In this document: positions 12,075-58,156 of the stretch, in pieces
How positions within the stretch are numbered: the stretch's first letter is position 1
How the letters are laid out: every line of letters begins with the position of its first letter
Source: an uncultured delta proteobacterium
GTDB taxonomy: Bacteria; Desulfobacterota; Desulfobacteria; Desulfobacterales; JAFDCJ01
Direction: 5' to 3'
Length of the DNA stretch: 64,000 nucleotides
Assembly: GCA_963769935.1 (NCBI GenBank)
Contig: CAVYNY010000011.1
Location: 96,001 to 160,000, forward strand
Program-made: the position numbers and the translations under genes
Notes under the pieces: generated by a model
What the model saw: only the letters and a program-made list of their open reading frames with translations
Databases searched by the model: none
Told to the model about the DNA's origin: nothing

Positions 12075-12654
12075 GTATTATAGTTCGCGGAATTGAACGC
12101 CGGAAATTCTTCTGGGACGATGAAGATCGTAATTCCTTTGTAAAGCGACTGGGACAGGTTCTGATTGAGACGCAAACCGATTGTTTTGCCTGGGCATTGA
12201 TCCCCCCGCCCACCTGTTGCTGCGTACAAACCTTACGCCAATCAGCGTGGTCATGAGAAGGCTTTTGACAGGATATGCTGTAGAATTTAACCTGCGGCAC
12301 CGCCGTCATGGCCATCTTTTTCTCTCCGAGGCGTGGGCTCTACGAGCCGGAGGCAGAATCGCTACCCCAGTTAAATGGGTCCTGATATCAATAACATCCG
12401 GAATAAAACCTTTTTGAGTTTGGAGCCGGAAATCGTAACGCGCCGGGGTCGATACCCGGATACGGTGGAAGCACGCAGCGTGTTATGATACTGGGCAGCT
12501 CGGGAACTTGGCATCAGCACCTTGGAGCTTTCCAAAAGGCTTGGCATTTCGCAACTTACGGCCAGCCAGTCGGTAAAACGGGGCGAATAGATTGTAAAAG
12601 AAAAGGGACTTAAGCTAATCAGGTAATTTATTCCAATATATCAATATCCGTCCC
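12075..12654 (+). pseudogene. Decayed Y1/HUH (RAYT/IS200-like) transposase, internally deleted
   Basis: IIVRGIERR..F...DR..F, CFAWALIP..HLLL, LLTGYA..FN.RH.RHGHLF(Q)NRY across frames; C-terminal HTH ARSVL*YWAARELG; ends at CGTCCC. Confidence 0.82.
12323..12354 (+). mobile_element. 32-nt palindromic mini-insertion (copy 1)
   Basis: TCTCCGAGGCGTGGGCTCTACGAGCCGGAGGC splits the CAG codon of the transposase GHLFQNRY motif. Confidence 0.75.
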
Positions 12655-12754
12655 TAATTACACATATAATATCTGATTAGCCTAATGGGCAGCAAAGTTA
12701 TGCCCCAAACGGGGTGTCGCCTGTTTGGTTAGCCGTTGGCGAAGGCTGATGGCT

Positions 12755-12831
12755 ACTGAGGAACCGTATGAGGGGGTCCTTCACGTAGGGGTCTGTGGGG
12801 AGGGCGCCGGGTAACCGGTGCCTTTACCCGG
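12755..12831 (+). mobile_element. Group II intron 3' remnant (domains V and VI), no RT ORF
   Basis: GAACCGTATGAGGG-GGTC-CTTCACGTAGGGGTC (DV-like) followed by TGTGGGGAGGGCGCCGG-GTAA-CCGGTGCCTTTACCCG (DVI-like). Confidence 0.75.
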
Positions 12832-12920
12832 AAGCAGACGGCGTGAAAATCGCGGTTTATCGTAAAGAGCGTACAAAATTGGTCTGAATTTGGGCCGCTG
12901 TTCACCGAAGGTCGTTCGGC
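12831..12920 (+). other. Truncated attC site (left part replaced by intron)
   Basis: GAAGCAGACGGC...GCCGCTGTTCACC arms and core GTTCGGC at 12914-12920, complementary to GCCGAAC at 13480. Confidence 0.65.
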
Positions 12921-12933
12921 TTAAACTTGGATC

Positions 12934-12961
12934 TTGACATTTTCATAATTATAAGTACAAT
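12934..12961 (+). promoter_or_regulatory. Sigma70 promoter of the TA cassette (probably leaderless mRNA)
   Basis: TTGACA-N16-TACAAT, 6 nt before the ATG at 12968; GTACAATGTAC inverted repeat overlaps the -10. Confidence 0.7.
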
Positions 12962-12967
12962 GTACAT

Positions 12968-13261
12968 ATGACTGAATTGCGATTTGAATGGGATAAACGG
13001 AAGGAAAAGGCTAATGAAAAAAAACATGGCATTTCTTTCGATGAAGCACGTACGGTTTTTTACGACGAGAATGCAATTCAATTTTTTGACCCAGACCATT
13101 CTGATGATGAAGACCGTTTCATTCTACTTGGAATAAGTTTTAAATTAAGGGTTCTCGTCGTCTGCCACTGTTTTCGGGAAAGTGATACAATTATTAGAAT
13201 TATATCTGCCAGAAAAGCTGATGGCGATGAAGAAAATGAATATTGGGAGTACAGAAAATGA
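12968..13261 (+). CDS. brnT: BrnT family type II toxin
   Basis: FEWD..K...N..KHGISF.EA..VF.D, E.RF..LG, RIISARKA. Confidence 0.95.
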   Translation: MTELRFEWDKRKEKANEKKHGISFDEARTVFYDENAIQFFDPDHSDDEDRFILLGISFKLRVLVVCHCFRESDTIIRIISARKADGDEENEYWEYRK

Positions 13262-13503
13262 GAGACCATTACGATTTTTCCAAAATGAAGGGGCGCAAAA
13301 ATCCTTATATAAAAAATTTAAAACAACCGGTTACTATGCGTCTGGACCGTGATACTGTTTCGTATTTCAAATCCATGTCTGAGGAAACCGGTATTCCTTA
13401 CCAAACCCTTATCAATCTTTATCTTCGTGACTGCGCCGTTACCCAACGGAAACTAAACATGAATTGGCATACTGAAAATGCCGAACAAGGCGCTTCAAAT
13501 TGA
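13258..13503 (+). CDS. brnA: BrnA family antitoxin
   Basis: ATGA overlap with brnT; YDFS, K.PVTMRLD, YFK, GIPYQTLINLYL. Confidence 0.93.
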   Translation: MRDHYDFSKMKGRKNPYIKNLKQPVTMRLDRDTVSYFKSMSEETGIPYQTLINLYLRDCAVTQRKLNMNWHTENAEQGASN

Positions 13504-13615
13504 CCGGAAGGGCCGCACGGCTTTTGCTGTTAAAGCCATTTTTTTCAAGTTCAGCATTTCGGTTGTTTCTGCTATTACCAAGGATCCCTTCCGGTAAGTG
13601 AGCTTTTCGTTCCGC
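13480..13615 (+). other. attC site (136 bp)
   Basis: Inverse core GCCGAAC, L boxes, CCGGAAGGG/CCCTTCCGG stem, core GTTCCGC. Confidence 0.75.
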
Positions 13616-13759
13616 AGGCGCGCAGCGCCGCTTCGCGGCAGACTGCTGCACGCCTGCGGAATGCCCGAGTTGCCGGTGCCCGGCCGCCCGTCTGGCTCCT
13701 TGGCGCTACGCGCCTGCGGAACCAAATGTTCGACCGGCAAATTTTCCCGAATAACCAGG

Positions 13760-14086
13760 CAACTTCGTTACCGTTGTGCAGGCCACAGTACATTAATGGA
13801 CAAATGGCCCAATGAATGGCAAAACACGGAATACATTTTATCTCTGTTTGGTGTCAAGACCTCGGTAGCGCGTCGCTCATACAGCAAATTTGTACGGTGA
13901 AAGCACGCAGCGTGTTATGATACTGGGCAGCTCGGGAACTTGGCATCAGCACCTTGGAGCTTTCCAAAAGGCTTGGCATTTCACAACCTACGTCCAGCCA
14001 GTCGGTAAAACGGGGCGAAATGATTGTATAAGAAAAGAGACTTAAGCTGATCGGGCAACTTATCCCAATATTTCAATACCCGTCCC
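13760..14086 (+). pseudogene. Second decayed Y1 transposase fragment; 13901-14086 is a direct repeat of 12469-12654
   Basis: Y..AGHSTLM.K....WQNTEYILSLFG....ARRSYSKFV, then the same HTH-coding tail with the same premature TGA and the same CGTCCC end. Confidence 0.8.
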
Positions 14087-14247
14087 AAATTACTCCCTGA
14101 AATGAAAATCCCGAAAATAATATAAGATTTGACAGGAAATATAATTGTGTCATTGAATCAAATCCTTGTGAAGTTATTGAGCTTATTGCCTTTCAACATC
14201 AGGTTCTAATTAATCATTTAACGACATCTGCGGGATGGAGGTGCAAA

Positions 14248-15588
14248 ATGCAAGGGGCAAAATTCCAAGAAAAAAGCTACTGGATGACTACACGAAATTA
14301 TTCTCCCGGCGAACCGCTGCAAGAAGACATCGATGTCGATGTGGCGATCGTGGGCGGCGGTTTTACGGGACTGTCTTCCGCCTACCACATTAAAAAGGCC
14401 GAACCGAATCTGAGAATCGCGCTGCTGGAAAACCAGATCATCGGTTTTGGGGCCAGCGGCCGCAACGGCGGATTCAACATGACGCTGTTCGGTCTGACAC
14501 TGAGCATTACGGCTCTTCGATTCGGCAAGCAAAAAGCCAGGGAAGCCCATCATTATATGGAGCGCGCGGTGGACTATCTGAAGGAACTGATATCCGAATT
14601 GAAGATCGACTGCGATTATGAGCATCCTGGTTTTTTGCGGGTGGCTACCTCTGAAAAATATAAAAAACGAATCCTGCATGAAATCAAGCTGGCCCATGAA
14701 CTGGGCCTGGAGGGCATTGAGTGGCTCGAAAAAGATAAGGCCCGGGAGCAGGTGCAAAGCTCCATGTATCTGGGTGCCTGGTGGGAGCCCCGCTGCGGCA
14801 TTCTCAACCCGGCCAAGCTGGCCTGGGGCTGGGTTGACGTTATCCGGCCCCTGGGCGTTGGAATATATGAAAACAGCCCGGTGGTGCAGATTGCCAGAGA
14901 AAACGGTAAAGTGCGACTCGATACACCCAATGGCAGCGTGCGTGCCGATAAGGTTGTGATGGCAACCAACGCCTGGTCTCATTTATTTAAAGAACTCAAG
15001 CGAAAACAGGTTCCGGCATGGACTCACATTGTGATGACCGAACCCTTAAAAGAAGCGCACTTTCAGGAAATCGGGTGGCAGAATCGGCAGGGCATCGAAG
15101 ATGCACGCAACCTGGTTCATTACTATCGGCTGACAATTGACAACCAGCTCGTGATGGGCGGACGCGACGTCTCGGTGAGCTACGGAACCGACATGGATAA
15201 AGATCTGAACCCGGTCACCTTTGAAGGATTGAAAAATGATGTGCGTGAACTTTTCCCCGTATTAAAGGACATAAAATTTACCCATGAATGGGGCGGACCG
15301 GTCTCCGTGCCGTTGGACATGGCGCCGGCCATCGGATACGCCGGGGATAAAAATGTCGTCTACAGCCTGGGGACCGTGGGTCATGGGGTCAGCATGACCC
15401 AGTTGAACGGGCGAACCGTGGCGGATTTGATTCTGGAACGTCAAACAGATTTGACCGATGTGTTTTTCGTTAACCGTCGAACCATTCCCTGGCCGCCGGA
15501 GCCGTTGCGCAACCTGGCCATTAAGGCGATTCTCGGCTACATGCACTGGGAGGATCGAAACTACGACCCTCCCCAAGTAAATCTTTAA
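14248..15588 (+). CDS. FAD-dependent oxidoreductase (DadA/PuuB-like)
   Basis: [29 protein letters not shown] motifs. Confidence 0.92.
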
Positions 15589-15670
15589 TCGGTTTTTCTC
15601 TCTTCGACCAGGCTTGAAAGAAGACTTTTGCGATGGTAACAAATAACTGAGGGGACGGGGTGCTATTTTT

Positions 15671-15744
15671 GTCATGCCCGCGCAGGCGGGCATCCAGTCT
15701 ACTCGGCACTTCATTTTCTGGATTCCTGCCTTCGCAGGAAAGAC
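15671..15744. repeat. CGTC-type REP inverted pair
   Basis: GTCATGCCCGCGCAGGCGGGCATCCAG ... CTGGATTCCTGCCTTCGCAGGAAAGAC. Confidence 0.8.
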
Positions 15745-15853
15745 GGACAAGTTCATGATATACTCCCCGAGTGCTCAAACAACTAATAACCAATAACCTT
15801 TAACAAATTACTCCCATTGCGTCCTGGCACAATGGGGTTTTGGGGGGCGCAAA

Positions 15854-16230
15854 ATGAAAGACGCGATCGTCTTTGGTGACCGGATGATGCCGATAACGCT
15901 GCCCGATGATGTCCGGCTTGCTCCGCCGGGACTATCTACGACCCTCCCGGCGGCGGAGAATATCGAGGAAGCCATCCGCAGCGCGCTGCTGGAACCGTTG
16001 GGTCGGCCGCCGCTGCAGGCGCTGGTTAAATCCGATTACAGGGTGACCATTGCCTTTGATGACCCCAGCGTGCCCTGCTTTGCGCCAACGGCCTGCACCG
16101 CAAATTTACCCGTCGCGAGCCGGCCCAAATTCTTGGGGAAGACCTCGTCAATGAATTCAGATACCGCTTGATCTGCCACGATGCCGAGGATCGGGAAAAT
16201 TTGCGAACTGCTGATCAATGTTCGCATCGA
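15854..16230 (+). pseudogene. Lactate racemase (LarA)-like N-terminal remnant
   Basis: AL.EPLG.PPL..L...RVTIAFDDPS then, in another frame, ANGLHRKFT and LICHDAED; truncated. Confidence 0.7.
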
Positions 16231-16282
16231 TTACGTTATTATCAGCAATAATGAAATCCGTGAAGATCCGTGTCCCAAACTT

Positions 16283-17284
16283 TTAATCGGAATAGTGGGA
16301 AATTTTGGCCGGGTCTAGGATCTGGCTTTGGTAGTTGGCGGCCGAGTCTTTCGATTTCTCAGTGATTACCCGATCGTCCCGGGATATCTGGTAGCGTTCC
16401 AAATAGCCGCGATCCTGAAGCTCCTTCAGTCCGGCGCGCACTTTGTCCTTTAAGCGGCGGTTTTCCAGATCGTTTTCCAGGTTTACCGCCCGGGCCAGGC
16501 GCAGGATGTCGAGGCTGGATTCCCGCTCGTACTGGCCCTGGTAATATCGATAAAAGGCCTTGCTGACATCTGATTTGAGGCTGGATCTGAATTTTAAGTC
16601 AATATTGGTCACAAAGCTGGCGGCGTACATTTCCAGAAAGTAGGGGTTGATCACCACCCGGATGCTGCCGGTTTCCCGGTCGATATCGGCAAAACTCAAA
16701 ATTGATCCGGTCAACTCTTTTAAGTCTTTGCGTTTTTTGCCCTTGCCGGTGAAAAGTTCGAGATCGATGCGGGTTCCGGCCAGGCGCTGGATGCTTTTCC
16801 AGATGGCAGCATACGCGTTGGGGGTCGGCTGGACATCTGCCAGGAAACTTAATTCGTCCTGGTTGGTTTCAAAGGCATCGCTTTGAAATTTTGTCATCAA
16901 GGCCAGCAGCGCGAACAATATCGTCTCGTCAAAAATGATGAGAAGCTCGCCCACCACCCGCATTCTGCCCCAGGAATCTCCATCGCCGGAATCCAGACGG
17001 ACCAGGGGCCATTCTGCGGACTTCATCTTACCTTTGAAGTGAAACGGGGAGACCCGGGTCAACATGGTGGGCATGAAGCTGAAAAACCGCTGCACCGGCG
17101 GCTGCCGGCTGATGTGTTTTTTAACAAATTCGGAGGCATTCCGGATGATCTGTCGGCCGGCCAACCGATGGACGGCAGTTTCGATGGCAGCATCCGAGGA
17201 TGTTTTGGCTTCATAGAGTTTTTGTTCGTCGGTGACTTCTGGTTTGGCCGGGGTCTTCGTCGGGTCCTGCATGCGTTGCCTCAT
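16283..17284 (-). CDS. Putative winged-helix replication initiator (TrfA/RepC-like)
   Basis: G.LL..FDE.ILFALL, AIWKSIQRL, GSILSF, VVINP, ID...R..LKS..SKAFY.YY, R.GL.ELQ..GYL pattern resembles plasmid Rep proteins. Confidence 0.55.
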   Translation of the reverse strand: MRQRMQDPTKTPAKPEVTDEQKLYEAKTSSDAAIETAVHRLAGRQIIRNASEFVKKHISRQPPVQRFFSFMPTMLTRVSPFHFKGKMKSAEWPLVRLDSGDGDSWGRMRVVGELLIIFDETILFALLALMTKFQSDAFETNQDELSFLADVQPTPNAYAAIWKSIQRLAGTRIDLELFTGKGKKRKDLKELTGSILSFADIDRETGSIRVVINPYFLEMYAASFVTNIDLKFRSSLKSDVSKAFYRYYQGQYERESSLDILRLARAVNLENDLENRRLKDKVRAGLKELQDRGYLERYQISRDDRVITEKSKDSAANYQSQILDPAKISHYSD

Positions 17285-17331
17285 GTTTTTTTCTAAGTTG
17301 TGCTTCTGATTTCAACAGTCTCAAGTTAATT

Positions 17332-17529
17332 TTAAACTGAAACCAATCCCGGTACGAATTTGAAATGCTGATCCTTAGAATATAGCTTTAAGCCATGTTG
17401 CAAGGCAATGGCTGCGATCCAGACGTCATTTGTCGGTATGGGTTTCCCCTTTTTTCTCAATCCGGTTAGTATTTCGGCATAAAACTCTGCTGTATCTTCA
17501 TACGCATTTTCAAATTCGATGTCAAACAA
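17332..17529 (-). pseudogene. PIN-domain (VapC) toxin C-terminal remnant
   Basis: L...GKPIPTNDVWIAA.A....L.L.S.D.HF; N-terminal half and antitoxin absent. Confidence 0.8.
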
Positions 17530-17628
17530 TTGAGTTGTAAAAGTATATTCGAATACTTATTTTACATCAAAATACAATCCAGCGGCCAACTTTGAGACAA
17601 ATCATTCCTATAAAAATGGAGATAAATT

Positions 17629-18648
17629 ATGATCCTTTATAACGAAAATCTGAACGAGGGGCTGCTTGAGTTCGGCATCGAGATCCCGGTGCTTGCCAGC
17701 CGGGCTGTCAAAACCTTTGAATATTTAAAATCTCATCCAATCCTGGGTCCGCAGATCGATCGATGGCACGTCCCGAAAATCGCAGAGCAGATTTCCAAAG
17801 AAGATCTGCTCCGGGTACACTCAAATGAGTATGTGGAGAAGCTATACTCAAACGGACTCGAACAGGAGATTATTCGAACCTTCGAATTAATCGACGATCA
17901 GGGCAATTATTATCGGTATAACCCGGATAAAGCCACGCTCCCGTTGTCCCGGCTGTTTGACCGAACCCTGACCACGGTGGCCAGCACGGTACAATGCGGC
18001 CGGGTGGCCCTGGAGAAAAATTTTTGTTTTGCCCTTCGCGGCGGCATGCATCATGGCCAATTCAGTTACGGCAACGGCTTTTGCATGCTCAACGACCTTG
18101 TGATTGCCATCCGCAAACTGCAGGCCGAAAACCGGATCCGTACCGCCTGGGTGATCGATGTCGATGCCCACAAGGGCGACGGAACGGCGGCGCTGACCCA
18201 CGGTGATGACTCCATTACAACTCTCAGCATCCACATGGCCCATGGCTGGCCCCTGGATGGCGCGGAATTTGATGCGGCCGGCAACCTCAACCCGTCTTTT
18301 ATTGCCAGCGATATCGACATTCCCATGGCCCGGGGGGAGGATCATTTATATGTTGCCAGGCTGCAGAAAGGGCTCGATCAACTTGAAAGCTTCCCAAAAC
18401 CGGATCTGGCCGTGGTCGTCGCCGGCTCCGATCCCTACGAAAAAGACGAACTGCCCTCCACCAGCGATCTGAGATTGTCGCTTGAGCAGCTAAAAGAGCG
18501 TGATCGACTTGTATATGGGTTTTTGAAAGCGTGCGGGATACCCGGGGCTTTTGTAATGGCCGGCGGTTACGGGGAGCACTCCTGGAAAGTTTATGCCCAG
18601 TTTCTGGAATGGGCCTTGCTGGACAGCCTTAACCTTAACGCTGCCTAA
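17629..18648 (+). CDS. Histone deacetylase family (Zn-dependent amidohydrolase)
   Basis: GGMHH, GFCMLND, IDVDAHKGDGT, SIH, GSDP, GGY. Confidence 0.93.
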   Translation: MILYNENLNEGLLEFGIEIPVLASRAVKTFEYLKSHPILGPQIDRWHVPKIAEQISKEDLLRVHSNEYVEKLYSNGLEQEIIRTFELIDDQGNYYRYNPDKATLPLSRLFDRTLTTVASTVQCGRVALEKNFCFALRGGMHHGQFSYGNGFCMLNDLVIAIRKLQAENRIRTAWVIDVDAHKGDGTAALTHGDDSITTLSIHMAHGWPLDGAEFDAAGNLNPSFIASDIDIPMARGEDHLYVARLQKGLDQLESFPKPDLAVVVAGSDPYEKDELPSTSDLRLSLEQLKERDRLVYGFLKACGIPGAFVMAGGYGEHSWKVYAQFLEWALLDSLNLNAA

Positions 18649-18799
18649 ATCTGTATCCATAATTCAAAAGGTGTAGACATAAGACCGCCGCTTTTGCGAA
18701 ATAGATGCCGGATGCTCGATACTTGATGCTGGATATGCAGGAATGCACCCGGAAAACTTTGAACATTCTCATCACTTTCAAAAAGGATTGCCGCCGCGC

Positions 18800-18997
18800 C
18801 CCATGAGCAAACCCTGGGATAAGGTCAATCCCAACAGCGGGCATTATGCCATCGTAGATCTGCAGAAATTGGGTAAACTAAAATTCTTAATCTACCAGAA
18901 TGTGGACAACCTGCATTTAAAGTTTCACGAAGCAATCGGAGACGTGCTGCCCAGGGCGGTGAAAAGATTGAAACGGCAGATGGAATTGTTCGAATGA
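18800..18997 (+). pseudogene. Sirtuin (Sir2 NAD-dependent deacylase) remnant with internal deletion
   Basis: PNSGHYAIV.L...GKLKFLI.QNVDNLH fused directly to the C-terminal IGDVLP segment. Confidence 0.75.
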
Positions 18998-19037
18998 TGC
19001 CGGCAATCGTGCCAAGAAAGAGCGCCTTTTATTCTTC

Positions 19038-20828
19038 TTACAAATTGTTGCTGTTCGGCTGGCCCATGCGCAAGGGGCCGCCGCGGGCCGTCGGCCACAG
19101 CAGGCAATTGCCGGCGGAGCCCGGGACTGTGAACACATCCATGCCATGGTCGAAAGTTTGCACAAAAATCTCCAGCTGACCGTCACCATCCAAATCCCCG
19201 ACAGTCGGGGCTGCCGGCGCGCCATTGCCATTGCCGTTGTAGCCGGGATTGGGCAGGGGAACATCGTGCAGCAGAGAGCCGTCGGCACCTAAAATTACCA
19301 GGTAGCCGGAATCGGCGACATCAGGGTCACCGTAGGTGGTAAACAGCAATTCCGGCGATCCATCCTGGTTCAAGTCCGCCGCCGTCACCTCGGAGGCATA
19401 CATGACTGCCTTGCCGTGGGTAAAATTAAAGCGCCAGATCTCAGCGGCACCGGCACTGAAAGCATAAACGAACCCGTCATTTAGCGACACAACAATTTCC
19501 GGTAACGCATCTCCCTGGATATTGACCGTGACGGCCGCCGGCACTCCGTTGGGTGGATACCAGCCGGCAACCGTGATGGGAAAATCGCCGTGGGGAAGCT
19601 CTTCCCAGCCGCTTTTGCGCATGGCTGAACGGTCGCCGCTACCGTGGGCGCCTTCCAGGACCATGACGGCATAGGCCTGGGTCTCATATGGAACATTGAA
19701 TTCAACATTCGGAATGCCGACCACTTCATTGCGGCCGTCGCCGTCCAGATCGACAATATTGGGAGGCGAAGCCGTCCACTGGAGCCATTCCTGGCGACTG
19801 GGATGCGGCCAGTCACCGGTATGCAGATGATAGTGGTTTTCTTCCACCTGCGGATCGGCCCAGCGGATGAACTGCCCCCAGGTCATGGGCAGGCCGTAAT
19901 ACGCGCTTTGACGGTTGGAAAAGTAAGGGGATGCATCGATGGCAACACCGTTCGGGTCAAAGGCCTGAATTTGGTGGTTATCATAGGTGACGATGATCTC
20001 CAGCTCGTCATCATCGTCAATGTTGCCGATGCCCACGTTGAGCCCGTAACAGCCGTAGCCGTCATGGCCCTGGCCGTTGCGGTCGACATCGCCGCCGTCG
20101 CCGCTTAAACTATTATACCGCGGCCAGGCCGGATAGCTCAGGCCGGGGGGCTGGAAAATAGATCCATCGTAGGCAAACACAAAGACCTGGGCGCCGCCGT
20201 CCGCCGCGCTCTGGGTCTGGGTTGTGGTGGCGACTACTTCGATCAGGCCGTCGCCGTCAAGATCGGCCGCCGCCAGTCCTCTGACCTCAGGCGATTCACC
20301 GGCTGTCGTTGTATCCGCCGGCCAGCCGCTTTTTAATTGCAAACGACCGCTTCGCCACTCATAGGCATACACTTCATGACCGTTGCCGTAGACGACTTCG
20401 GCGATGCCGTCACCTTCCAGGTCCACCACCACGTGGGGCGCATACACCCGGCCGCTGCCGCCGTCGACCCGATCCAGCAGGGTTCCATCGCTGCCGAAGA
20501 CATAAACCGAATAGTAAGCAGCAATAAGCTCTTTGGCGCCATCGCCTTCCAAATCCGCCACAACCGGCGAAGCATACCAGCTGGTTTGTCCGGTCAGGTT
20601 CATTAAAAATTCGGGCCTTTGGACCTCGCCCCCGCTCGGCCCGGCCTGGCAAACAACATTGCGCTCACCGCCGGTGGCGCTGCCGCTATCCAATTGCCCG
20701 CCATTGGAAGAATTTTCCTGGGATGGGCCGCCCCCGCCGCCGCCGCAGCCAAGTGTCACGGCAACAAAAACTAGCATCCGGAAGCTATAAATCAGCCACA
20801 ACACGAGCCGGCCTGTTGTCGATGTCAT
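19038..20828 (-). CDS. FG-GAP/VCBS repeat lipoprotein
   Basis: TLG-C lipobox plus poly-Gly linker; repeated DL(D/E)GDG..E Ca-binding motifs. Confidence 0.85.
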   Translation of the reverse strand: MTSTTGRLVLWLIYSFRMLVFVAVTLGCGGGGGGPSQENSSNGGQLDSGSATGGERNVVCQAGPSGGEVQRPEFLMNLTGQTSWYASPVVADLEGDGAKELIAAYYSVYVFGSDGTLLDRVDGGSGRVYAPHVVVDLEGDGIAEVVYGNGHEVYAYEWRSGRLQLKSGWPADTTTAGESPEVRGLAAADLDGDGLIEVVATTTQTQSAADGGAQVFVFAYDGSIFQPPGLSYPAWPRYNSLSGDGGDVDRNGQGHDGYGCYGLNVGIGNIDDDDELEIIVTYDNHQIQAFDPNGVAIDASPYFSNRQSAYYGLPMTWGQFIRWADPQVEENHYHLHTGDWPHPSRQEWLQWTASPPNIVDLDGDGRNEVVGIPNVEFNVPYETQAYAVMVLEGAHGSGDRSAMRKSGWEELPHGDFPITVAGWYPPNGVPAAVTVNIQGDALPEIVVSLNDGFVYAFSAGAAEIWRFNFTHGKAVMYASEVTAADLNQDGSPELLFTTYGDPDVADSGYLVILGADGSLLHDVPLPNPGYNGNGNGAPAAPTVGDLDGDGQLEIFVQTFDHGMDVFTVPGSAGNCLLWPTARGGPLRMGQPNSNNL

Positions 20829-28256: not shown

Positions 28257-28355
28257 ACGGCTCGGGTACTTGGCAGGCCCGGCAGCGTTGAGCCCCGCAG
28301 AGGTGAAGTCAAACCCCGCCGTCGGCGGGGCCCCTGAGCAAGGATTCTTTACTCA

Positions 28356-41739: not shown

Positions 41740-41984
41740 TTAACCATCTCCTTTTACAGTTTATTTTTTGCCACAATTCTAACTTGCGGGTCCTCATCAT
41801 AGCCCCTTAAGTTGGCGGCAAGATGACGGCAAGATGACCAAAATATTTATTCCAACATTGAAAAACTGGTCCTTTGAGCCAGGTCACAGGTAATAGACTT
41901 TGGCGTAAATATATGCCGCGGGGTGTTGGAATAATGGCATGCTGGAATACCGGGTTTGGCGGTAAAAGATCTGTTTTATATGAA

Positions 41985-42240
41985 TGGCACTGATCAGAAA
42001 ATAAAATTAGACCATCATCCGCTTTTCATGCCCAATATTCCATTTTTCTCTCCGATCCGTAGGCTCTACGAGCCGGAGGCCACTATTCCAATATTCCATG
42101 GGTTATTTGACTTCAAACACCAGCCCTCTCTCCTAACTGCAGGATCTACGAACCGGAAGCTGGGATGTGATGTCAATGCCTGACCCTCCCTCCGGGCTGT
42201 AGGCCCTACGGGCCGGAAGCTGGGCCCGGATTTTTTACCC
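41985..42240 (+). repeat. MITE-like dispersed repeat carrying three nested 32-nt insertions (42049-42080, 42129-42160, 42189-42220)
   Basis: Shares GGCACTGATCAGAAAATAAAATTAGA..CATCATCC..TTTTCATGCCCAATATTCCA..GGGTTAT..GACTTCAAACACC with 58019-58156 (inverted). Confidence 0.8.
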
Positions 42241-42514
42241 GCTATATTCTATCGAAATTGATCTGCTGGTCAACCTTCAGCCGGTGTATTATATTTATAA
42301 TACCAATCATTAATCCCGGCCTGGATCACACACGGCTGTCCGGTTCGCAGGTTCCGGTTGGAAGATATCATCGATCCTTCACGGCTCGATACGCCTGCGA
42401 TGGGTTTGCGTTCCTCCAGTTTTGCATGTTGCGCCTCTATTGACGAATCCTGCCGTCCAGCTGCCGCCGGTTTGTCGACCGGGCCGGCAACAGACGCCAA
42501 ACAGAGAATGAGCC

Positions 42515-49979: not shown

Positions 49980-50222
49980 CCGAGGTAGCGTTGGATTCAA
50001 TAGACAGTGAGCTGCAGATACAAAAGTGCAATTGAGTTTCCTGTCATTACACATGCGGTTTTATGAGCTGGAATCGGAACCTTACAGCCGCATTCATCCC
50101 ATATCCGGCCGAATTGACAAACATGAAAGCACTTTCAATCATTCTTGACGTCCAAGGAAAAAGACCGTACAGTAAGCGGTAGCCGGTTGAATTGGATTAA
50201 TCGGAACAAAAGGTGAGGATAG

Positions 50223-51374
50223 GTGCAAATAACCGTATTGGGTGCCGGTCTGGTGGGGAATGCCATTGTAAGGGATCTGGCCCTGGACAAACGTTTTGAT
50301 ATCATTGCTGTGGACCGGGATCAACACGCCTTAAACCGCCTGCAGCAAAAATGTTCGGCCCAAATTCTGCAGACGGATCTTGCTGAAGCAGGCCGGGTCG
50401 GGGAAATAGTGATCGAAAGCGACCTGGTAATTAATGCGGTGCCTGGATTCATGGGCTTTGAAACTTTGAAGCAGGTCATCGCCGCCGGGAAAAATGTCGT
50501 CGACATTTCATTTTTCGCCCAGGACGCTTTTCAGCTGGATGACCTGGCAAAGTCCAAAGGTGTCACGGTGGTGGTGGATTGCGGAGTGGCGCCGGGATTA
50601 TGCAATGTACTCTGCGGGCATGTCGACAACCGATTGGACCGCTTAGAGCATTACACCTGTTATGTCGGTGGATTGCCGGTCACTCGCAACTGGCCGTTCG
50701 AATATAAATCGGTTTTTTCGCCATCGGATGTAATCGAAGAATACACCCGTCCGTGCCGGTATCTTGAATACGGATGCGAGGTGGTCCGGCCGGCGCTTTC
50801 GGATGCGGAGCTGATCGATTTTCCGGAAATCGGTACGCTGGAAGCGTTCAATACCGACGGTTTGCGAACCCTTCGCCAAACAATGAAGATTCCGAATATG
50901 AAGGAAAAAACGTTGCGCTACCCCGGCCACGCCAGTCTTATGCGGGCCTTCAGAGATAGCGGATTTTTCAGCCCGACCCCCATGCAGGTCGACGGGCGGT
51001 CCGTCCGTCCGCTTTCGGTTATATCGGCCCTTTTGTTTGCACAGTGGGAACTTCAGCCGGGAGATGAAGATTTCACGTTGCTGAAAGTTGTGGTCGACGG
51101 CTGGGAAAAAGAAAGCAAACGCCGCTATACTTATGATCTACTGGACAGATATGACCGCAAAACACAAACTACTTCCATGGCCCGGACAACCGGATATACT
51201 TGCAGCATCGTGGCCCGTCAGGTCCTTTCCGGAAAATTCACCCTGAAGGGGATTTGCCCGCCCGAGCTTATTGGACGTCAAGACGCATGCTTTGATGATT
51301 TGCTCGCAGGATACACCAAAAGGAACATCCGGCTGGTCGAAACCATAGATTCCCCTTCATTCACCGACAGTTAA
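50223..51374 (+). CDS. Saccharopine dehydrogenase family / lysine 6-dehydrogenase-like
   Basis: VLGAGLVG, DCGVAPG, YVGGLP, EAFNTDGLRT, EKTLRYPGH, TSMARTTG. Confidence 0.92.
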   Translation: MQITVLGAGLVGNAIVRDLALDKRFDIIAVDRDQHALNRLQQKCSAQILQTDLAEAGRVGEIVIESDLVINAVPGFMGFETLKQVIAAGKNVVDISFFAQDAFQLDDLAKSKGVTVVVDCGVAPGLCNVLCGHVDNRLDRLEHYTCYVGGLPVTRNWPFEYKSVFSPSDVIEEYTRPCRYLEYGCEVVRPALSDAELIDFPEIGTLEAFNTDGLRTLRQTMKIPNMKEKTLRYPGHASLMRAFRDSGFFSPTPMQVDGRSVRPLSVISALLFAQWELQPGDEDFTLLKVVVDGWEKESKRRYTYDLLDRYDRKTQTTSMARTTGYTCSIVARQVLSGKFTLKGICPPELIGRQDACFDDLLAGYTKRNIRLVETIDSPSFTDS

Positions 51375-51980
51375 TTTTATACCAAAGCCTATAAAAACAA
51401 TGCCTGCAAATCGTTCAATCCAAATCCGTGCGCTTCGATATATGCTCCGGAATTTGTCCAGAGAGAAAATATAGGCGACAAAAGCATACCAGATAGTCGA
51501 TATTAAAGACATCAGGGCCGCACTCATAAAGCCGATATAAAAAGCTGGATCTGAGGGCATCGTGGCCGCAAACAGACTGGCCACAAAAGCAGCAGATTTA
51601 GGGTTTGAGAGGTTCGTCAAAAGCCCTAATTTATAACTTCGCAATGCGTTAGAATTTGAGGTAAGGAACCGCCTTTCCCCGGACCTTTGTCCTGATTTCG
51701 ATTTAATAAGTCTTGCGCCGAGATAAATAAGATAGGCGCCGCCAAGCAGCTTCAGGAAAATATAGATCCACGGTACGGTTCGAAACAACAAATTTATTCC
51801 CCAAAAACCGCACAACCCCCAAATGATCGTACCCGTACTGATTCCAAGCACCACAAATAGGGCAGAACGGCGGGACCCGCCAATCGCGGTCTGTACGGTT
51901 ATAAAAAAGTTCGGACCCGGCGTTATGACGGCAATACCCCAAATGAATGCAACGCTTAATAAAATGATTGATAATTCCAC
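51357..51980 (-). CDS. LysE/RhtB family translocator
   Basis: TPGPNF, GGAYL.YLG, G..TNLSNPK. Confidence 0.93.
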   Translation of the reverse strand: MELSIILLSVAFIWGIAVITPGPNFFITVQTAIGGSRRSALFVVLGISTGTIIWGLCGFWGINLLFRTVPWIYIFLKLLGGAYLIYLGARLIKSKSGQRSGERRFLTSNSNALRSYKLGLLTNLSNPKSAAFVASLFAATMPSDPAFYIGFMSAALMSLISTIWYAFVAYIFSLDKFRSIYRSARIWIERFAGIVFIGFGIKLTVGE

Positions 51981-52279
51981 TGTTCATTCCCATGATTCGT
52001 GGTTATTCGTGTCCATTCGTGGCTAATTCATATTTGGAAAAGACTAAAATCATATGTTAGTTTAAGTTTGATGGATATTGCCGCGCGGTTGCCCCCCAAG
52101 CAACTCATTTCAAACAAATTGCCGATTTACTCATTCTTAATTTATCCGGTTCTCCTAATACCGTCAAACAGCATATCCCGAGCCTATTTTTCGGCTCCAG
52201 ACGCCCTTCTTGCGGCCCATTTGGGCGTCCAAAATGTTGCCTGTTATTCACTATGCAAGCTTTGAACCCCTTTTCTTTG

Positions 52280-52401
52280 ATGATAATGACGCCCTTCTCA
52301 TACACCAGGGGCCGCCGGGGTCTGCTCTGCGAATTCTTATCGACCCTGATCCCGGGCATCGGGGCCTCGTTGACCCCTTCCGCCGTTGCCAGGCGGTCCA
52401 T
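52280..52401 (-). pseudogene. AraC (YqhC-like) regulator N-terminal remnant, divergent from the aldo/keto reductase
   Basis: EG.NE..MPGI......SRPR.PLVYE.GVIII then unrelated sequence. Confidence 0.55.
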
Positions 52402-52489
52402 CTGTGTTTATTGTTGCATATAGCGCATGTGTCAAAGATAAGATGCGTCTGTTGTTTTTCAATCCATGAAACAAAGGAGGACTTCTACG

Positions 52490-53518
52490 ATGCAGTACAA
52501 ACAACTCGGCAGAACGGGATTGTTCGTCTCGGAATTGTGTTTCGGAACCATGACATTCGGCGGAAAAGGCTTCTGGCGGGCGATCGGTCAGCTGCCCCAG
52601 GACGCTGCGGACAATCTGATCGCCCGTGTGCTGGAGGCGGGCATCACCTTTATTGATACGGCCAATATCTACTCCGAAGGGGAGTCTGAAACGATTCTGG
52701 GGAAGGCTCTGGGAAATCGCCGCAAGGATGTGGTGCTGGCAACGAAAGTGTTCGGCCGCATGGGGCCGGGGCCCAATGAACTCGGCCTGTCCCGCGGTCA
52801 TATCATGCGGGCGGTTGAAGACAGCCTGACCCGTCTTGGAACGGACTACATCGACCTGTATCAGATTCACGGGTTCGACCCGCTCACCCCCATGGAGGAA
52901 ACTTTGCGGACCCTGGACGACCTGGTGCACTCCGGCAAGGTGCGCTACATCGGATGTTCCAACCTGGCTGCCTGGCAATTAATGAAATCGCTCTGGGTGT
53001 CGGATAAATACAACCTGCACCGCTTTGAAAGCCTGCAAGCTTACTACACCATTGCCGCCCGGGATCTTGAGCGGGACGTCGTGCCGGTTCTGCAGGACCA
53101 GAACCTGGGCCTGATGGTCTGGAGCCCCCTGGCGGGCGGGCTTTTATCCGGCAAATACGACCGCGACGGCAAAGGGCCGGGAGGCGCCCGCCGCGTTGAA
53201 TTCGACTTTCCGCCGGTTGACAAGGACCATGCCTTCAACATTGTGGACGTGATGCGGGAAATCGCCGCTGACAGGAATGCCTCCGTGGCGCAGATCGCCT
53301 TGAGCTGGCTGCTGCACCAGCCGGTGGTCACCAGCGTGATCATCGGAGTTAAAACCCCGGAGCAACTGGCCGACAACCTCGCGGCACCGGCTGTGAACCT
53401 GTCCGCCGATGATCTGGCGCGTTTGAATGCGGTCAGCGCACTACCCGCCGAGTATCCCGGCTGGATGCTCCACCGGCAATCCACGAACCGCTTGCCGCAG
53501 ACAGCGCAAGACGCCTGA
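52490..53518 (+). CDS. Aldo/keto reductase
   Basis: LG.TGL.VS.LCFGTMTFG, IDTANIYS, ATKV, YIDLYQIH, WSPLAGG.LSGKY. Confidence 0.95.
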   Translation: MQYKQLGRTGLFVSELCFGTMTFGGKGFWRAIGQLPQDAADNLIARVLEAGITFIDTANIYSEGESETILGKALGNRRKDVVLATKVFGRMGPGPNELGLSRGHIMRAVEDSLTRLGTDYIDLYQIHGFDPLTPMEETLRTLDDLVHSGKVRYIGCSNLAAWQLMKSLWVSDKYNLHRFESLQAYYTIAARDLERDVVPVLQDQNLGLMVWSPLAGGLLSGKYDRDGKGPGGARRVEFDFPPVDKDHAFNIVDVMREIAADRNASVAQIALSWLLHQPVVTSVIIGVKTPEQLADNLAAPAVNLSADDLARLNAVSALPAEYPGWMLHRQSTNRLPQTAQDA

Positions 53519-53569
53519 GCACCTGCAACGGTTCTCATTGCCAATTTTCAATTTTAAAATCCGAATGCT

Positions 53570-53850
53570 TTAAATGGAATCCAGCAGCCGCCGGCCCCCG
53601 CAGAAGACATCCGACCCGGGGCCATCCGCCAGGGTCGCCAGGGTGATGTCGAGTTGCGCTGCAAGCTGCACTGCCAGGGCCGTGGGGCGCGATAAGACCA
53701 GAATGACCGGAGTGCGGGCCCGGGCTGCTTTTTGAACAAGCTCATAGCTGATGCGCGCTGACAGGGTCAGCAGGGCGGCCTTAGCGAGTGTTTGGGCAAG
53801 CAATGCTTTGCCGATGGCTTTATCGAGCGCGTTGTGCCGTCCGACATCCT
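53570..53850 (-). pseudogene. fdhD: FdhD (formate dehydrogenase accessory sulfurtransferase) C-terminal remnant
   Basis: DVGRHNALDKAIG, S.RISYELVQKA, S.PTALAV; N-terminal two-thirds missing. Confidence 0.82.
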
Positions 53851-54016
53851 ATTTGACTATCTTAATGTAGGGGACCCGCTTTCTGACCTCTTCAAGTTTG
53901 GATTTTAATTCAGCCTGGTCAATATTTTCTTCTGCGCCCCTGCCGAGCGGACCTAATTTTCTGACTCCCTTTGAAAAATCATTCCGGAACTATTGAGCAG
54001 GCGCGGGGGGTGCAAA

Positions 54017-54652
54017 CTACCCGGTGCGGGGGGCGCCGTCCTCCGGCAGCAGCGTCGAGGGGTATTGCACGGCAGCGCAGTAGCTTCTCGTAAAATCGAT
54101 CAAATCCGGAAAAAATGACAAAAAGTTACTTTCCAGGCGATTGTAATTGTGGCTGATTTCCTCGATTGAACCGTTCAGTGGATTGTCCGGAGAGATGCGT
54201 CTGGCAATTCTTTCCATTGTAATTTCGACCCCGTCTAACGTTCCATACTTTATCAGCCAGTTTTGCCGTCGCATGCGGGGCAATACATCCTGCAGCAACC
54301 TGGGCGGCAGGATGCTGTGGTAGGTTTGCATAACCGTGTAGACATGGCCGGCAAATTCGCCGAGATCCACAGACGCATAAGTATTCCAGAATTTGGAAAG
54401 AAAGTGATCGTAGCAGATATCTATGATGATACCGGCAAACCGCCGCCGGTAAGGGCTGAACAGTTTGCGGCAATCGGCCGTTAAGACATGGGCGTCGGCA
54501 AAAGTATCAACCTTGCGATGAAAGATAATGCCTTGCTCAATTGCCCGGCTGTATCGATTTTCGATCTTGCCCTTGACAAAGTCTCCCAGTAAGCTGCCAA
54601 GGAGAAATTCGTCCGAACCGGCTGCCAAATATGAGTGTGCCAGATAATTCAT
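54017..54652 (-). CDS. acpH: ACP phosphodiesterase (AcpH/DUF479)
   Basis: MNYLAH, G..LGDFVKG, HR.VD.F.D.H, D..YDHFL, F..FFPDL. Confidence 0.92.
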   Translation of the reverse strand: MNYLAHSYLAAGSDEFLLGSLLGDFVKGKIENRYSRAIEQGIIFHRKVDTFADAHVLTADCRKLFSPYRRRFAGIIIDICYDHFLSKFWNTYASVDLGEFAGHVYTVMQTYHSILPPRLLQDVLPRMRRQNWLIKYGTLDGVEITMERIARRISPDNPLNGSIEEISHNYNRLESNFLSFFPDLIDFTRSYCAAVQYPSTLLPEDGAPRTG

Positions 54653-55251
54653 TCGTGAGGTCCCCTAAACTCCTACAGCGTGATGGCGTGATGGCCCGCC
54701 CCGGTGCGACGTACTGAGAAATTAAAGCACGTTTGCCCTGGTTGGAAAAAAAATAGCTAAAATTGGGTTTATGTTAAAAACGGTCTGGGCCAGGATTCTT
54801 TACATAGGCGTTTGACGCTGAAGCCTGATCGAATGCTTAAAAAGGAGGAGCCGCCAGACTTCATCGTTATATCAACCCGTTTTTGAAATTTTGTCAACCG
54901 GCAGATTTTTTTTAACTTCCATCCGTGAATCCATTTTCATCCTCACGGCATATATTGACATAACGTATTGGGCTATATAGCTTAAGAGCTCAGCGAGCTG
55001 ACACCAGGGATGGTATGCGCCGCACCCGCTTGAACCCAATCTGTCGGAAAATAATGAAAACGATCTTTGATTTGGGCTCTCGCAGAATCAGTTTTCGATC
55101 CTGAATATCAATCAATTGGGCCTAAAAAATTCGATAAAAAGCTTGACAAGAAATTAGGAGTTTAATTTTATGGCAGGTTGCCCCTGCGGTAAATTTGGCT
55201 GAAAATTAATCGCGGGCCAAATACTTTAAACCAAGCAAAGGAGAAAATACC

Positions 55252-56229
55252 ATGAAAAAGTTATTTGTTATTTTGGTTCTGGCGGTTTTTCTGTTCGCTG
55301 CCGGCCACGCCCTGGCGGCCACAGACATCAAACTGGCAGTGGTGACCAAACCGGGTTCGGCCCAGAACGTTGCCGCTGAAAAATTTAAAGAATTGGTTGA
55401 ACAACGCTCCAATGGGGATATCAAAGTCCAGATATTTCATTCGGGCTCGCTGGGAAACGAAACTGAAATTCTTCAGCAGGTGCAAATGAACTCCATCCAG
55501 ATGGCCATTGTCACCGGAGGGGTTTTTGACACATTCGACCCCATGGCCCGGGTGGTGAATTATCCGTTTCTGTTCAAAAACTATGACCAGGTCGACAAAA
55601 TTTTGGACGGACCGCTGGGAGGCGAGCTGTTGAAGAGCCTTGAAAGCTCGGGGTTCAAAGGACTTTGCTTTTCCGAAAACGGTTTTCGAAACCTTACCAA
55701 CAACAGACGGCCGGTCAAAACCGCCGCTGATCTGGAGGGGCTTAAAATCAGGGTCATGTCTTCTGCAATCCATAAGGCCATCTGGCAGGATTTGGGCGCC
55801 AACCCGACGCCCATGCCGTGGCCTATTTATACCGAACTGGAACAGGGCGTCATTGACGGTCAGGAAAATCCCCTGTGGGTCATGGAAGTATACAAATTCT
55901 ATGAAATCCAAAAATACATGACCCTGACGCGCCATGTTTATTCCTACCACATTGATGTGGCTTCGCTGAGCTGGTGGAATACCCTGGATGCCAAAACCCA
56001 GGAAACGATTCAAAAAGCTATGTATGATGCGGCTGTTTACCAGAGAAAAGACAATCGGTCCAAAAATGCGGACCGGCTGAAGTTTTTGAAAGACAAAGGT
56101 ATGCAGATCGAAGAAAATCCCGATATCCCAAGCTTTCGCGCGAAAGTGGCGGACATCCAGAAAATGGATTTATACCAGGATCCCAGGGTCCAGGCCCTGC
56201 TGGTCAAGATGATGGCCGCAACCAAGTAA
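55252..56229 (+). CDS. dctP: TRAP transporter substrate-binding protein
   Basis: Signal peptide; ENGFRNLT, DL.GLKIRV, QGVIDGQENP. Confidence 0.95.
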   Translation: MKKLFVILVLAVFLFAAGHALAATDIKLAVVTKPGSAQNVAAEKFKELVEQRSNGDIKVQIFHSGSLGNETEILQQVQMNSIQMAIVTGGVFDTFDPMARVVNYPFLFKNYDQVDKILDGPLGGELLKSLESSGFKGLCFSENGFRNLTNNRRPVKTAADLEGLKIRVMSSAIHKAIWQDLGANPTPMPWPIYTELEQGVIDGQENPLWVMEVYKFYEIQKYMTLTRHVYSYHIDVASLSWWNTLDAKTQETIQKAMYDAAVYQRKDNRSKNADRLKFLKDKGMQIEENPDIPSFRAKVADIQKMDLYQDPRVQALLVKMMAATK

Positions 56230-56264
56230 CCCCCATCATTAGTGCGAACCGCAAGGGAGGTGGC

Positions 56265-56750
56265 GTGTCTGTTCTCGACAAATTGAGCTTTGCCATAAAC
56301 AGCTGGATCGAATACCTGCTTTTCGGGCTGGGCTTGACCATGACCGTGGTTGTCGCCGTGCAGGTATTTTTCCGCTATGTGCTCAATCAATCGCTATTCT
56401 GGTCGGAGGAGCTGGCGCGCTATCTCCTGGTCTGGTTGTCATTTCTGGGGGCCTCGGTGGCCTATCGCCGCAAAGCCCATCCCGGCATTGATATTTTACA
56501 GGCAAAAATGCCGGGTGGGCTGCAGAAAATCTCGACCTCCATCGTCCACCTTGCATCCATGGCCCTGTTTGCCGTCATGATCTTTTTCGGATGCCGCTTC
56601 GCTTATTTCGTCAGACTGCAAATATCACCGGCCCTTTATCTGCCCAAGTGGATCGTATTCAGCATCGTTCCTATCAGCGGCTGTATTTTAATGATCCACG
56701 GTATCAGTTTTTTGCTGCAGGAACTGGCGGGAGAACACCGTGGCGACTGA
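56265..56750 (+). CDS. dctQ: TRAP transporter small permease
   Basis: QV.FRY, WSEELARY..VW..FLGA. Confidence 0.93.
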   Translation: MSVLDKLSFAINSWIEYLLFGLGLTMTVVVAVQVFFRYVLNQSLFWSEELARYLLVWLSFLGASVAYRRKAHPGIDILQAKMPGGLQKISTSIVHLASMALFAVMIFFGCRFAYFVRLQISPALYLPKWIVFSIVPISGCILMIHGISFLLQELAGEHRGD

Positions 56751-58020
56751 AGTTCTCATCTTATCCCTGCTGCTGCTGTTTGCAATCAATGCTCCCATCG
56801 CCATTGCCATCGGGGTGGCCTCCTTGCTGGCAATCCTGATTCAGGGCAACTTTCCGCTGATGATGGTTGTTCAGAAAATGTTCGGGGGAATGGATTCTTT
56901 CCACCTGATGGCGGTCCCCCTGTTCATGTTCACCGGGGTCATCATGGAAGCCGGCGGAATCAGCCGCAGAATTATCGATTTTGCCAACGCCCTTGTCGGA
57001 TGGCTGCCCGGTGGACTGGCAGCGGTAACGGTTGTATCGGCCATGTTTTTTGCGGGAATTTCCGGCTCGGCCGCTGCCGATGCCGCCGCAGTGGGTGCGA
57101 TTCTGATTCCGGCTATGAAGAAATCCGGCTATGAGTCCGATTTCGCAGCTGCCGTTCAGGCTGCGGGTGGTTCCATCGGGGTCATTATTCCCCCGTCTAT
57201 TCCGATGATTATCTTCGGTTTTCTGACCGGGGCCTCTATCGGTCAGCTTTTTGCAGGCGGAATCCTGCCTGGGATTTTGATAGGTCTCTCGCTGATTGCC
57301 GTGGCAACATTTATTTCCCATAAAAAGGGATATTCGGCCACCTCGGCTTTCACATTGAAAGAAATCGGGGTCACATTTAAAAGAGCACTGCTCGCGTTGG
57401 GCGCGCCGGTGATAATCCTGGGAGGCATCCTTTTCGGGATATTCACCGCCACCGAATCGGCCGCCGTCGCGGTGGTGTATGCGCTGATCGTGGGGATGCT
57501 GGTCTATAAAAAAATCAAGATCAGAGACCTTTTTCCGCTCTTCAGGGACGGAGCTATTACCTCTGCCATTGTCATGTTTATCATCGCAACGGCTTCTGTT
57601 TTCAGTTGGATAGCAGCCATTGAGGATATCCCCGCCCACCTGGCCGGATCACTGCTGGGTCTCACCCGGGATCCGATCTATCTGATGCTGCTCATCAATT
57701 TAATTTTGCTGATTGCCGGGACATTTGTCGAAACAACCGCCTCATTGATTCTGCTGGTGCCCATGATTACCGCCATGCTGCCATCGCTGGGCGTGGATAT
57801 GATTCAACTGGGTGTAATCGTTGTGACCAATCTGGCTATCGGAATGCTGACACCGCCGATGGGGATCTGTCTGATAGTTTCCTGTTCCATCTCCGGCGAC
57901 AGTCTGGCTGCCATCAGCCGCAGAATCCTGCCCTTTTTGGCCGTCTTGTTGATTGATCTGCTGATAATCAGCTTTTATTCGCCGCTTACCATGTGGCTGG
58001 CCCGGCTGGTGGCAAAATAG
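56740..58020 (+). CDS. dctM: TRAP transporter large permease
   Basis: SGSAAAD, IIPPSIPMI, G.FTATE, G.LTPP.G. Confidence 0.95.
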   Translation: MATEVLILSLLLLFAINAPIAIAIGVASLLAILIQGNFPLMMVVQKMFGGMDSFHLMAVPLFMFTGVIMEAGGISRRIIDFANALVGWLPGGLAAVTVVSAMFFAGISGSAAADAAAVGAILIPAMKKSGYESDFAAAVQAAGGSIGVIIPPSIPMIIFGFLTGASIGQLFAGGILPGILIGLSLIAVATFISHKKGYSATSAFTLKEIGVTFKRALLALGAPVIILGGILFGIFTATESAAVAVVYALIVGMLVYKKIKIRDLFPLFRDGAITSAIVMFIIATASVFSWIAAIEDIPAHLAGSLLGLTRDPIYLMLLINLILLIAGTFVETTASLILLVPMITAMLPSLGVDMIQLGVIVVTNLAIGMLTPPMGICLIVSCSISGDSLAAISRRILPFLAVLLIDLLIISFYSPLTMWLARLVAK

Positions 58021-58156
58021 TAAAGAATCCTGGCCCAGCTTCTTGCCCGCAGGCCTACAGCCCGGAGGGAGGGGTGGTGTTTGAAGTCACATAACCCATG
58101 GAATATTGGGCATGAAAAGGGGATGATGCTCTAATTTTATTTTCTGATCAGTGCCG
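58019..58156 (-). repeat. Second copy of the MITE-like repeat, with a 31-nt nested palindrome (58038-58068)
   Basis: Inverted match to 41985-42240; terminus CTGGGCCAGGATTCTTTAC also at 54785-54803 and, degenerate, near 28335 and 47443. Confidence 0.8.

Follow-up and report, generated by a model that had tools for sequence, protein, structure and literature searches.

The window analysed here, meaning the whole 64,000-nt stretch (positions 96,001 to 160,000 of contig CAVYNY010000011.1) from an uncultured member of the Desulfobacterales, carries five copies of a 32-nt palindromic element, one inside a broken transposase gene and four inside copies of a dispersed repeat. A preliminary description, made from the letters of the window alone, had placed these five copies correctly, four of them exactly 32 nt long and the fifth, on the minus strand, 31 nt long. 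The features concerned are the following.

12076..12658, plus strand: broken Y1/RAYT-like transposase gene, host of copy 1, recognised by similarity to an open frame on contig C15
12323..12354, plus strand: copy 1 (T1/AGGC subfamily), TTTTTC^AGAATC, on the sense strand of the broken TnpA-Y1 (RAYT-like) gene
41974..42245, plus strand: dispersed, decayed ~160-bp host repeat with three sites; ends approximate, with loose contig ends near 41974 and 42238
42049..42080, plus strand: copy 2 (T1/ATCC subfamily), site 1 of the host repeat, TTTTTC^CA
42129..42160, plus strand: copy 3 (decayed T1/AGCT type), site 2 of the host repeat, CCCTC^TGGG
42189..42220, plus strand: copy 4 (C1/GGCT subfamily), site 3 of the host repeat, CCCTC^TGGG
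58038..58068, minus strand: copy 5 (C1/GGCT type, 31 nt), CCCTC^TGGG within a different copy of the host repeat

The consensus pattern has four matches in the window at up to 3 mismatches, compared with 0 in 100 dinucleotide shuffles; the 31-nt copy 5 is unmatchable by a 32-nt pattern. Copy 1 lies in a gene of two pieces, which share 88% and 90% identity with an open frame of 346 aa that is intact on contig C15. This intact paralogue carries the empty allele, CATGGCCATCTTTTTC|AGAATCGG at the insertion place, and removal of copy 1 restores the HGHLFQNRY codons, as had been claimed. The filled allele is spanned, with one difference, by a 335-nt contig of run X1, which may derive from the source sample, and a loose contig end at copy 1 reads the empty allele. 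The broken gene is a target of the element, and nothing marks it as the mobiliser. The other reported settings were also recovered, with copy 2 situated within an 8-bp TTCCA run and copies 3 to 5 at CCCTC^TGGG. A clean 32-nt skip at copies 1 to 4 was absent from the run contigs, which drop rare forms. No orthologous filled/empty pair was obtained for copy 5: the upstream gene has matches in four relatives, but alignment with them ends at the host repeat.

A weight matrix built from 67 distinct 32-mers was employed to search the 8.0-Mb genome at a cut-off of at least 18 bits, carrying out the genome-wide count that the preliminary description had proposed. The search returned 144 merged matches, compared with 0 in a triplet shuffle. 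Iterative excision, which exposes nested copies too, gave 148 events (124 of 32 nt, 17 of 31 nt and 7 of 33 nt), a few of which are 16-nt tandem slips rather than separate insertions, and the base to the left of the element is C in 140 of the 148. For the empty-site test, 133 strong copies were reduced to 106 distinct flank pairs of 12+12 nt, with up to 2 mismatches allowed. The exact excision join has a matching empty site elsewhere for 63 of the 106 pairs. A join one base shorter has 6, 4 of them from a 33-nt subfamily, while the joins one base longer have 1 each and two bases longer 0. The element ends in C and is preceded by C, which leaves a one-base ambiguity at the boundary; nothing else is duplicated, in agreement with the original claim. 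With its 144 matches, fixed ends and exact empty alleles, the element is almost certainly a real, very small mobile unit, non-autonomous as first described.

The element was also traced in other genomes. Of 22 genomes of the genus, 17 carry the pattern; none of 18 genomes in other families of the order does, and a phylum sample of 400 genomes includes 18 with it. At least 116 stretches with the element came from a scan across species genomes, and among the 80 titled ones most are metagenome-assembled genomes (MAGs) of Desulfobacterota type; Acidobacteriota, Planctomycetota, Verrucomicrobia, Nitrospinaceae, Fermentibacteria, Lentisphaerae and a betaproteobacterium are represented as well. Five of these genomes hold 2 to 36 copies each, of which the low counts could reflect bin contamination. 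MAGs of several phyla contain identical copies in different flanks. An assembly artefact is ruled out by the diversity of copies across many genomes and by the run contig across copy 1. The outside flank set comprises 125 distinct pairs from other genomes, with the 33-nt subfamily left out. Position -1 is C in 124 and position +1 a pyrimidine in 116 of the 125, and the flank information amounts to 1.93 bits at -1 and 0.2 bits at -2 and -3. The general target is C^Y, and the YYYTC motif given in the preliminary description is local to the host repeats of this genome. At the outside loci, housekeeping genes predominate among the neighbours, judged from 150 of the 436 candidate frames. At L085 and L093 the left flank and the element are held in common while the right flanks differ, which suggests a rearrangement at the end of the element.

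The ~160-bp host repeat has 166 matches in the genome. Near-full copies number 66; all three sites are empty in 35 of them, and the other copies show seven combinations of filled sites, with sites 1, 2 and 3 filled in 14, 19 and 9; the three sites are filled or empty independently of one another. At site 1 the inserts are 96% identical compared with 72% for their hosts, and the nearest neighbour is also filled for 1 of the 14 filled host copies. At site 2 the nearest neighbour is filled for 13 of 19, and filling there was likely inherited in part along with the host repeat. Change counts on a host tree (10, 15 and 8, from a 160-nt alignment without shuffle control) add weak support. Further hosts are a coding gene, a REP-like (repetitive extragenic palindrome) hairpin, a CTCTGCGG-type repeat, runs of 7- and 8-mers, tRNA copies and the element itself, which bears out the reported bias to other repeats. 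The independent filling of the three sites and the unrelated hosts rule out that the element is a fixed part of one larger repeat; empty alleles exist, the ends are fixed, and the hosts are many and unrelated.

Copies are nested within one another both in this genome and at outside loci. Clustered copies lie on the same strand in 35 of 35 pairs, a figure inflated by shared hosts. The 33-nt subfamily (GCCT, ending in GCG) nests almost only at the CTAC^G loop of resident copies, in many genomes (G000:C4 near 89346-89383, C33 near 84600, L016, L021, L043 and L048), and is a parasite of resident element copies.

The host repeat contains two other tiny inserts. The second insert, of ~24 nt with the core CCAAAGGCGGATC, occupies a fixed place in the TTCCA run and has 7 genome matches (G000:C9 near 227869, C10 near 547199, C11 near 278095, C15 near 40092, C36 near 81871 and C38 near 26091 are listed). 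The third, which is palindromic (CCCGCC.TCGGCGGGG), has 9 genome matches with both strands counted, among them the window near 28315 (G000:C11:124315), G000:C13 near 467340, C16, C22 and C34. An empty piece of a related host repeat with a CTGGTCCT-type site lies at 41846-41890 of the window, just 5' of copies 2 to 4, with many loose contig ends.

The 32-mer is made of two directly repeated 16-nt halves, such as TCTCCGAGCTGTAGGC and TCTACGAGCCGGAAGC. In a set of 103 distinct copies, complementary covariation was seen at pairs 1-7, 10-30, 14-26 and 17-23, all with i+j = 8 modulo 32. These pairs make up one continuous rod only when base 32 is joined to base 1. In 54 distinct sequences, this dumbbell fold shows 6 pairs and 68 cells changed on both sides (0 of 500 shuffles), compared with 1 pair and 3 cells for the long hairpin; the sequences are related, hence the counts are not independent events and the shuffle counts are not probabilities. 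A variant with stems GGTC/GACC adds the compensatory pairs 9-31 and 15-25 (L173:1499-1530 on the minus strand, L086, L063 and L170). The motif G11-T12-A13-R14 precedes the stem 14-18/22-26, which shows covariation. The compensatory changes favour a dumbbell through the end-to-start junction over the long hairpin that had been described. That hairpin is indeed well paired (91.9%) and tolerates G-T changes, but its support from energy alone is weak in the five window copies (folding-energy z of -0.28, -1.39, +0.53, -2.82 and +0.18 for copies 1 to 5); the inserted copy may adopt this hairpin. What first looked like a separate 'G-type' family turned out to be the same 32-nt element read on the reverse strand. 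At G000:C22 near 601150-601214, C13 near 467437-467485 and L051, the first 16-nt half is tandemly expanded (2-4 units); single hybrid 16-mers occur elsewhere and, with these half-unit expansions, represent slippage between halves.

A metagenome scan for the end-to-start junction identified 22 stretches. Eight of these hold single permuted copies, in which half 2 is followed by half 1, at 6 distinct sites; the remaining stretches are 4 head-to-tail dimers, 6 1.5-mers, 3 arrays and 1 complex case. Runs of 7-mer repeats hold two of the permuted sites (L123, L136), and sequence resembling tRNA-Pro holds the other four (the L126 group, L135 and two in L137); at L135 and L137 an intact tRNA-Pro beside the filled copy represents the empty allele. 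A single event may lie behind all the tRNA sites, so that the safe count is three independent contexts for the permuted form. The rarer CCAGAGGC variant is common to 5 of the 6 sites, and the 32-mer of this permuted variant is present in normal order in genome G377. It is proposed that the permuted copies result from opening at the twin site C16^T17 instead of C32^N1. In L124 (whole) and L127/L128, tandem element copies form arrays with a 64-nt period and a different ~32-nt insert between the halves of each; these are CRISPR-like in look and may be a derived minisatellite.

These data make movement through a circular intermediate probable. The fuller account, to which we give marginally better than an even chance, is that a 32-nt two-half unit is inserted precisely after C with no target base lost, having been moved as a closed single-stranded DNA dumbbell circle by a putative trans-acting HUH/Y1-type enzyme. 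With base 32 joined to base 1, the circle would form a rod of twofold symmetry, in which 5-bp stems end in the triloops TCC and TAC and flank a GTA/GGA internal loop at the centre, in effect two mini-REPs head to tail (GTAG+GCTC-TAC-GAGC and GGAR+GC|TC-TCC-GAGC). The enzyme would nick the circle and a single-stranded target after C and swap strands like IS608 TnpA, leaving no duplication, and opening of the circle at C16^T17 would give the permuted form. Hairpins, short tandem repeats and resident copies would be favoured by single-stranded DNA exposed near the bound enzyme. The products match the IS608-type strand swap, an established chemistry (PMC6006769, PMC8266576). Whether the movement uses HUH/Y1 chemistry is, in our judgement, evenly balanced, the link to Y1 being drawn from the geometry of the junction.

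In its workings the element is like the REP/IS200 single-strand type, yet it lies outside both by membership, with no REPtron, no doublet, no 4-5 nt target and no partner. It resembles the REP, bacterial interspersed mosaic element (BIME) and REPIN-RAYT systems in having GTAG followed by a short hairpin, many mostly intergenic copies (144 matches for the element) and a cut after C. E. coli TnpA-REP cuts C|T near a bound GTAG hairpin and does strand transfer, and excised circles re-opened at other sites have been proposed for TnpA-REP and BIMEs (PMC3333891). The element's insertion close to resident copies is a further likeness to TnpA-REP. A GTGG guide moves TnpA-REP cutting to CC (PMC8266576), and the cuts after C described for REP are C|T, C|A and C|C with changed guide (PMC8266576, PMC3333891). 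Some GTAG repeats are located within other palindromes (PMC3733652). Excision of REP singlets was not found in P. fluorescens (PMC3116915), and REP circles were not seen in a mobilome study (bioRxiv 10.1101/2024.07.17.603846); the mechanism of REP dissemination is called unresolved in PMC8266576. Unlike REP, the element has sharp fixed ends, exact empty alleles and a single unit with direct-repeat halves; it has no cognate RAYT flanked by copies and is near-identical across phyla, whereas REP is species-specific. Unlike REPIN, it has no inverted doublet with spacer.

Elements of the IS608 type leave no target duplication, insert 3' of a short motif and pass through an obligatory single-stranded circular intermediate (PMC6006769). 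The element shares the first two properties, and probably the third, with IS200/IS605 (IS608, ISDra2) and their non-autonomous derivatives, but it is far smaller, lacks separate left and right subterminal hairpins, has a target of 1-2 nt rather than 4-5, has no autonomous partner among orphan halves, and a lagging-strand bias is not shown for it. It differs from miniature inverted-repeat transposable elements (MITEs) in having no target-site duplication of 2 or more bp (+1 joins 1 and 1, +2 join 0 of 106). Mitochondrial GC clusters (GC42) and double-hairpin elements are tiny GC-rich palindromes that spread, merge and cross species (PMC4478555); they share with the element the small GC-rich palindromic form and the spread, but they are organellar and putative target duplications have been described for them. 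Closest in behaviour are the small dispersed repeats (SDRs) of Nostoc, which, like the 32-nt element, are very small, inserted precisely into other repeats and without a gene of their own; the overlap with them may be larger than this comparison shows. Elhai and co-workers reportedly described in 2008 self-nesting, insertion into heptamer repeats, compensatory changes and lengths of 21-27 nt for SDRs. The element is distinct in its 32 nt against these lengths, its occurrence in several non-cyanobacterial phyla and its C^Y target, and a twofold dumbbell through the junction with permuted copies is not known for SDRs. SDR5 inserts precisely between bases 3 and 4 of HIP1 (PMC4390886). The sequence of the element was not found in the searchable literature or in the supplements of the GTAG survey (PMC3733652), and concept searches gave nothing matching; subscription papers, that on SDRs included, lay outside both searches.

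A number of observations on fold, ends and enzyme weigh against the circle moved by a Y1-type protein. The long hairpin is paired as well as the dumbbell and is the predicted linear fold, the dumbbell pairs can be formed in a linear copy as well, and the second axis (pairs 1-23 and 7-17) is a consequence of the 16-nt symmetry. Because the skeleton also accommodates the reverse strand, the sequence does not fix which strand acts. The permuted form is rare: it was absent from this genome and from viral contigs, with no clean case in 29 carrier genomes. Two slips of 16 nt in a tandem dimer could alternatively have produced it; the junction stretches do include dimers and 1.5-mers, and a permuted form made once by slips would still need movement with its new ends. 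No free circle was seen among the run contigs, which drop rare forms. The G-rich strand carries 74 copies and the other 25, which agrees with lagging-strand insertion but is inseparable from host orientation, and the bias is not significant with empty hosts as control (pooled p = 0.11). With regard to a GTAG guide, the genomic junctions follow C^Y, and C^C predominates in T1 types. T1-type copies stand at C^C in 71 of 86 cases and C1-type copies at C^T in 26 of 39, a preference opposite to the simple guide rule, and GTAA variants are likewise inserted after C. A guide rule based on pairing of bases 8-9 with the flank was unsupported by the flank data.

No enzyme for the element was found. The genome holds 59 RAYT/Y1-like loci of several subtypes, most of them fragmentary, and the association with an intact Y1/RAYT gene that the preliminary description proposed to test for did not appear: 1 of the 59 contains a copy, and its gene is broken by it, while no intact Y1 gene flanked by the element was found among these loci. 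Classical RAYT is present in the genome only as fragments. None of five families or subtypes tested by co-occurrence follows the element. The Y1 family PF01797 is in 39 of 40 relatives, whether or not they carry the element; the earlier suggestion of Y1 movement keeps the junction geometry on its side but not the distribution of Y1 genes. Two Y1 subtypes, each in 20 of 54 genomes, are unrelated to element presence; they were not found in element-rich genomes such as G044, G057, G097 and G133 and are present in the element-free G013. The four-helix-bundle family PF05635 is in 51 of 55 genomes, element-free ones included, and the GxxExxY family PF13366 is in 34 of 55 and was not found in several carriers. 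No autonomous partner with the same ends was identified among orphan halves in the 96.7% complete genome, these halves being nests, slips or chance matches. Elsewhere, L042:1-485 holds two copies of different subfamilies in a 7-mer run beside an IS200-like Y1 gene with its own GTAGGCGCGACATG-type hairpin flank. Reverse-transcriptase genes lie within ~1 kb of RAYT-like genes at G000:C11:461709-463941 and C17:221555-223265, where they are possibly group II introns in those elements.

Other explanations were weighed against the circular single-stranded DNA. It is considered unlikely that the element moves as RNA, in the form of a small circle or hairpin that is cleaved and ligated after C and then turned back into DNA by a cellular reverse transcriptase. 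Such an RNA route has reportedly been proposed for Nostoc SDRs. Of the 10 commonest variants, 5 (one of them partly) fold as circles into the dumbbell with RNA parameters and 1 with DNA parameters, the genome has 10 reverse-transcriptase matches, one permuted lineage sits in a tRNA anticodon loop, and a skeleton common to both strands is as expected of plus/minus replicating forms. Nevertheless, no sense bias to flanking genes was observed (the upstream gene shares the strand of the copy in 62 cases and lies on the other strand in 55), copy 1 has the sense orientation of its gene while those in tRNA are antisense, and an Rfam search of the window gave no match for the element as a known RNA family. 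A similarly low chance is given to a different recombinase that would act on a folded strand with a 1-bp C:G core, such as an integron-type tyrosine recombinase, an IS110-family enzyme or an IS91-type Y2 enzyme. IntI is an established case of an enzyme that recombines folded single strands. Here the junction lies within a paired stem, the shared C is formally a 1-bp core, the genome contains an IS91-type gene, and Y1 subtypes fail to follow the element. However, the target information is only ~2 nt, less than attC/attI and IS110 guides use, and GTAG plus hairpin with the C^Y pattern resembles RAYT substrates.

An explanation without any enzyme, in which a few old insertions were spread by gene conversion among paralogous hosts and by mobile hosts, with half-unit slippage making dimers, 1.5-mers and permuted forms, is regarded as quite improbable. 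In its favour, each subfamily in this genome keeps to a host site of its own, both tandem expansions of 16 nt and single 16-mers occur, and the host repeats are themselves amplified. On the other hand, the likeness at flank bases +2..+5 is 62% for 17 filled copies and 60% for 25 similar empty sites; flanks of filled sites are as varied as those of similar empty ones, which argues against spread by conversion tracts. The unrelated hosts, the C at -1 in nearly all outside flanks and the identical copies in different flanks in several phyla also speak against conversion, which would leave the first insertions unexplained.

The element, whose kind is related to known systems, offers unusual evidence for a minimal circular intermediate. 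A broader proposal, which we hold tentatively and at somewhat less than even odds, is that the element represents a minimal class of mobile DNA, whose genome would be a 32-nt covalently closed, twofold-symmetric dumbbell with two equivalent opening sites, near-unchanged across phyla and with a 33-nt parasite subfamily of its TAC loop. If true, this would be the smallest transposition intermediate known to us and a natural case of the circle re-opening proposed for REP spread. The exact ends, exact empty alleles and natural permuted form make the circle model testable with one synthetic 32-nt oligonucleotide, and scarless insertion after C in single-stranded DNA by so small a substrate would define the minimal needs of the recombinase. 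In addition, the element marks DNA exchange among sediment microbes that belong to distant phyla.

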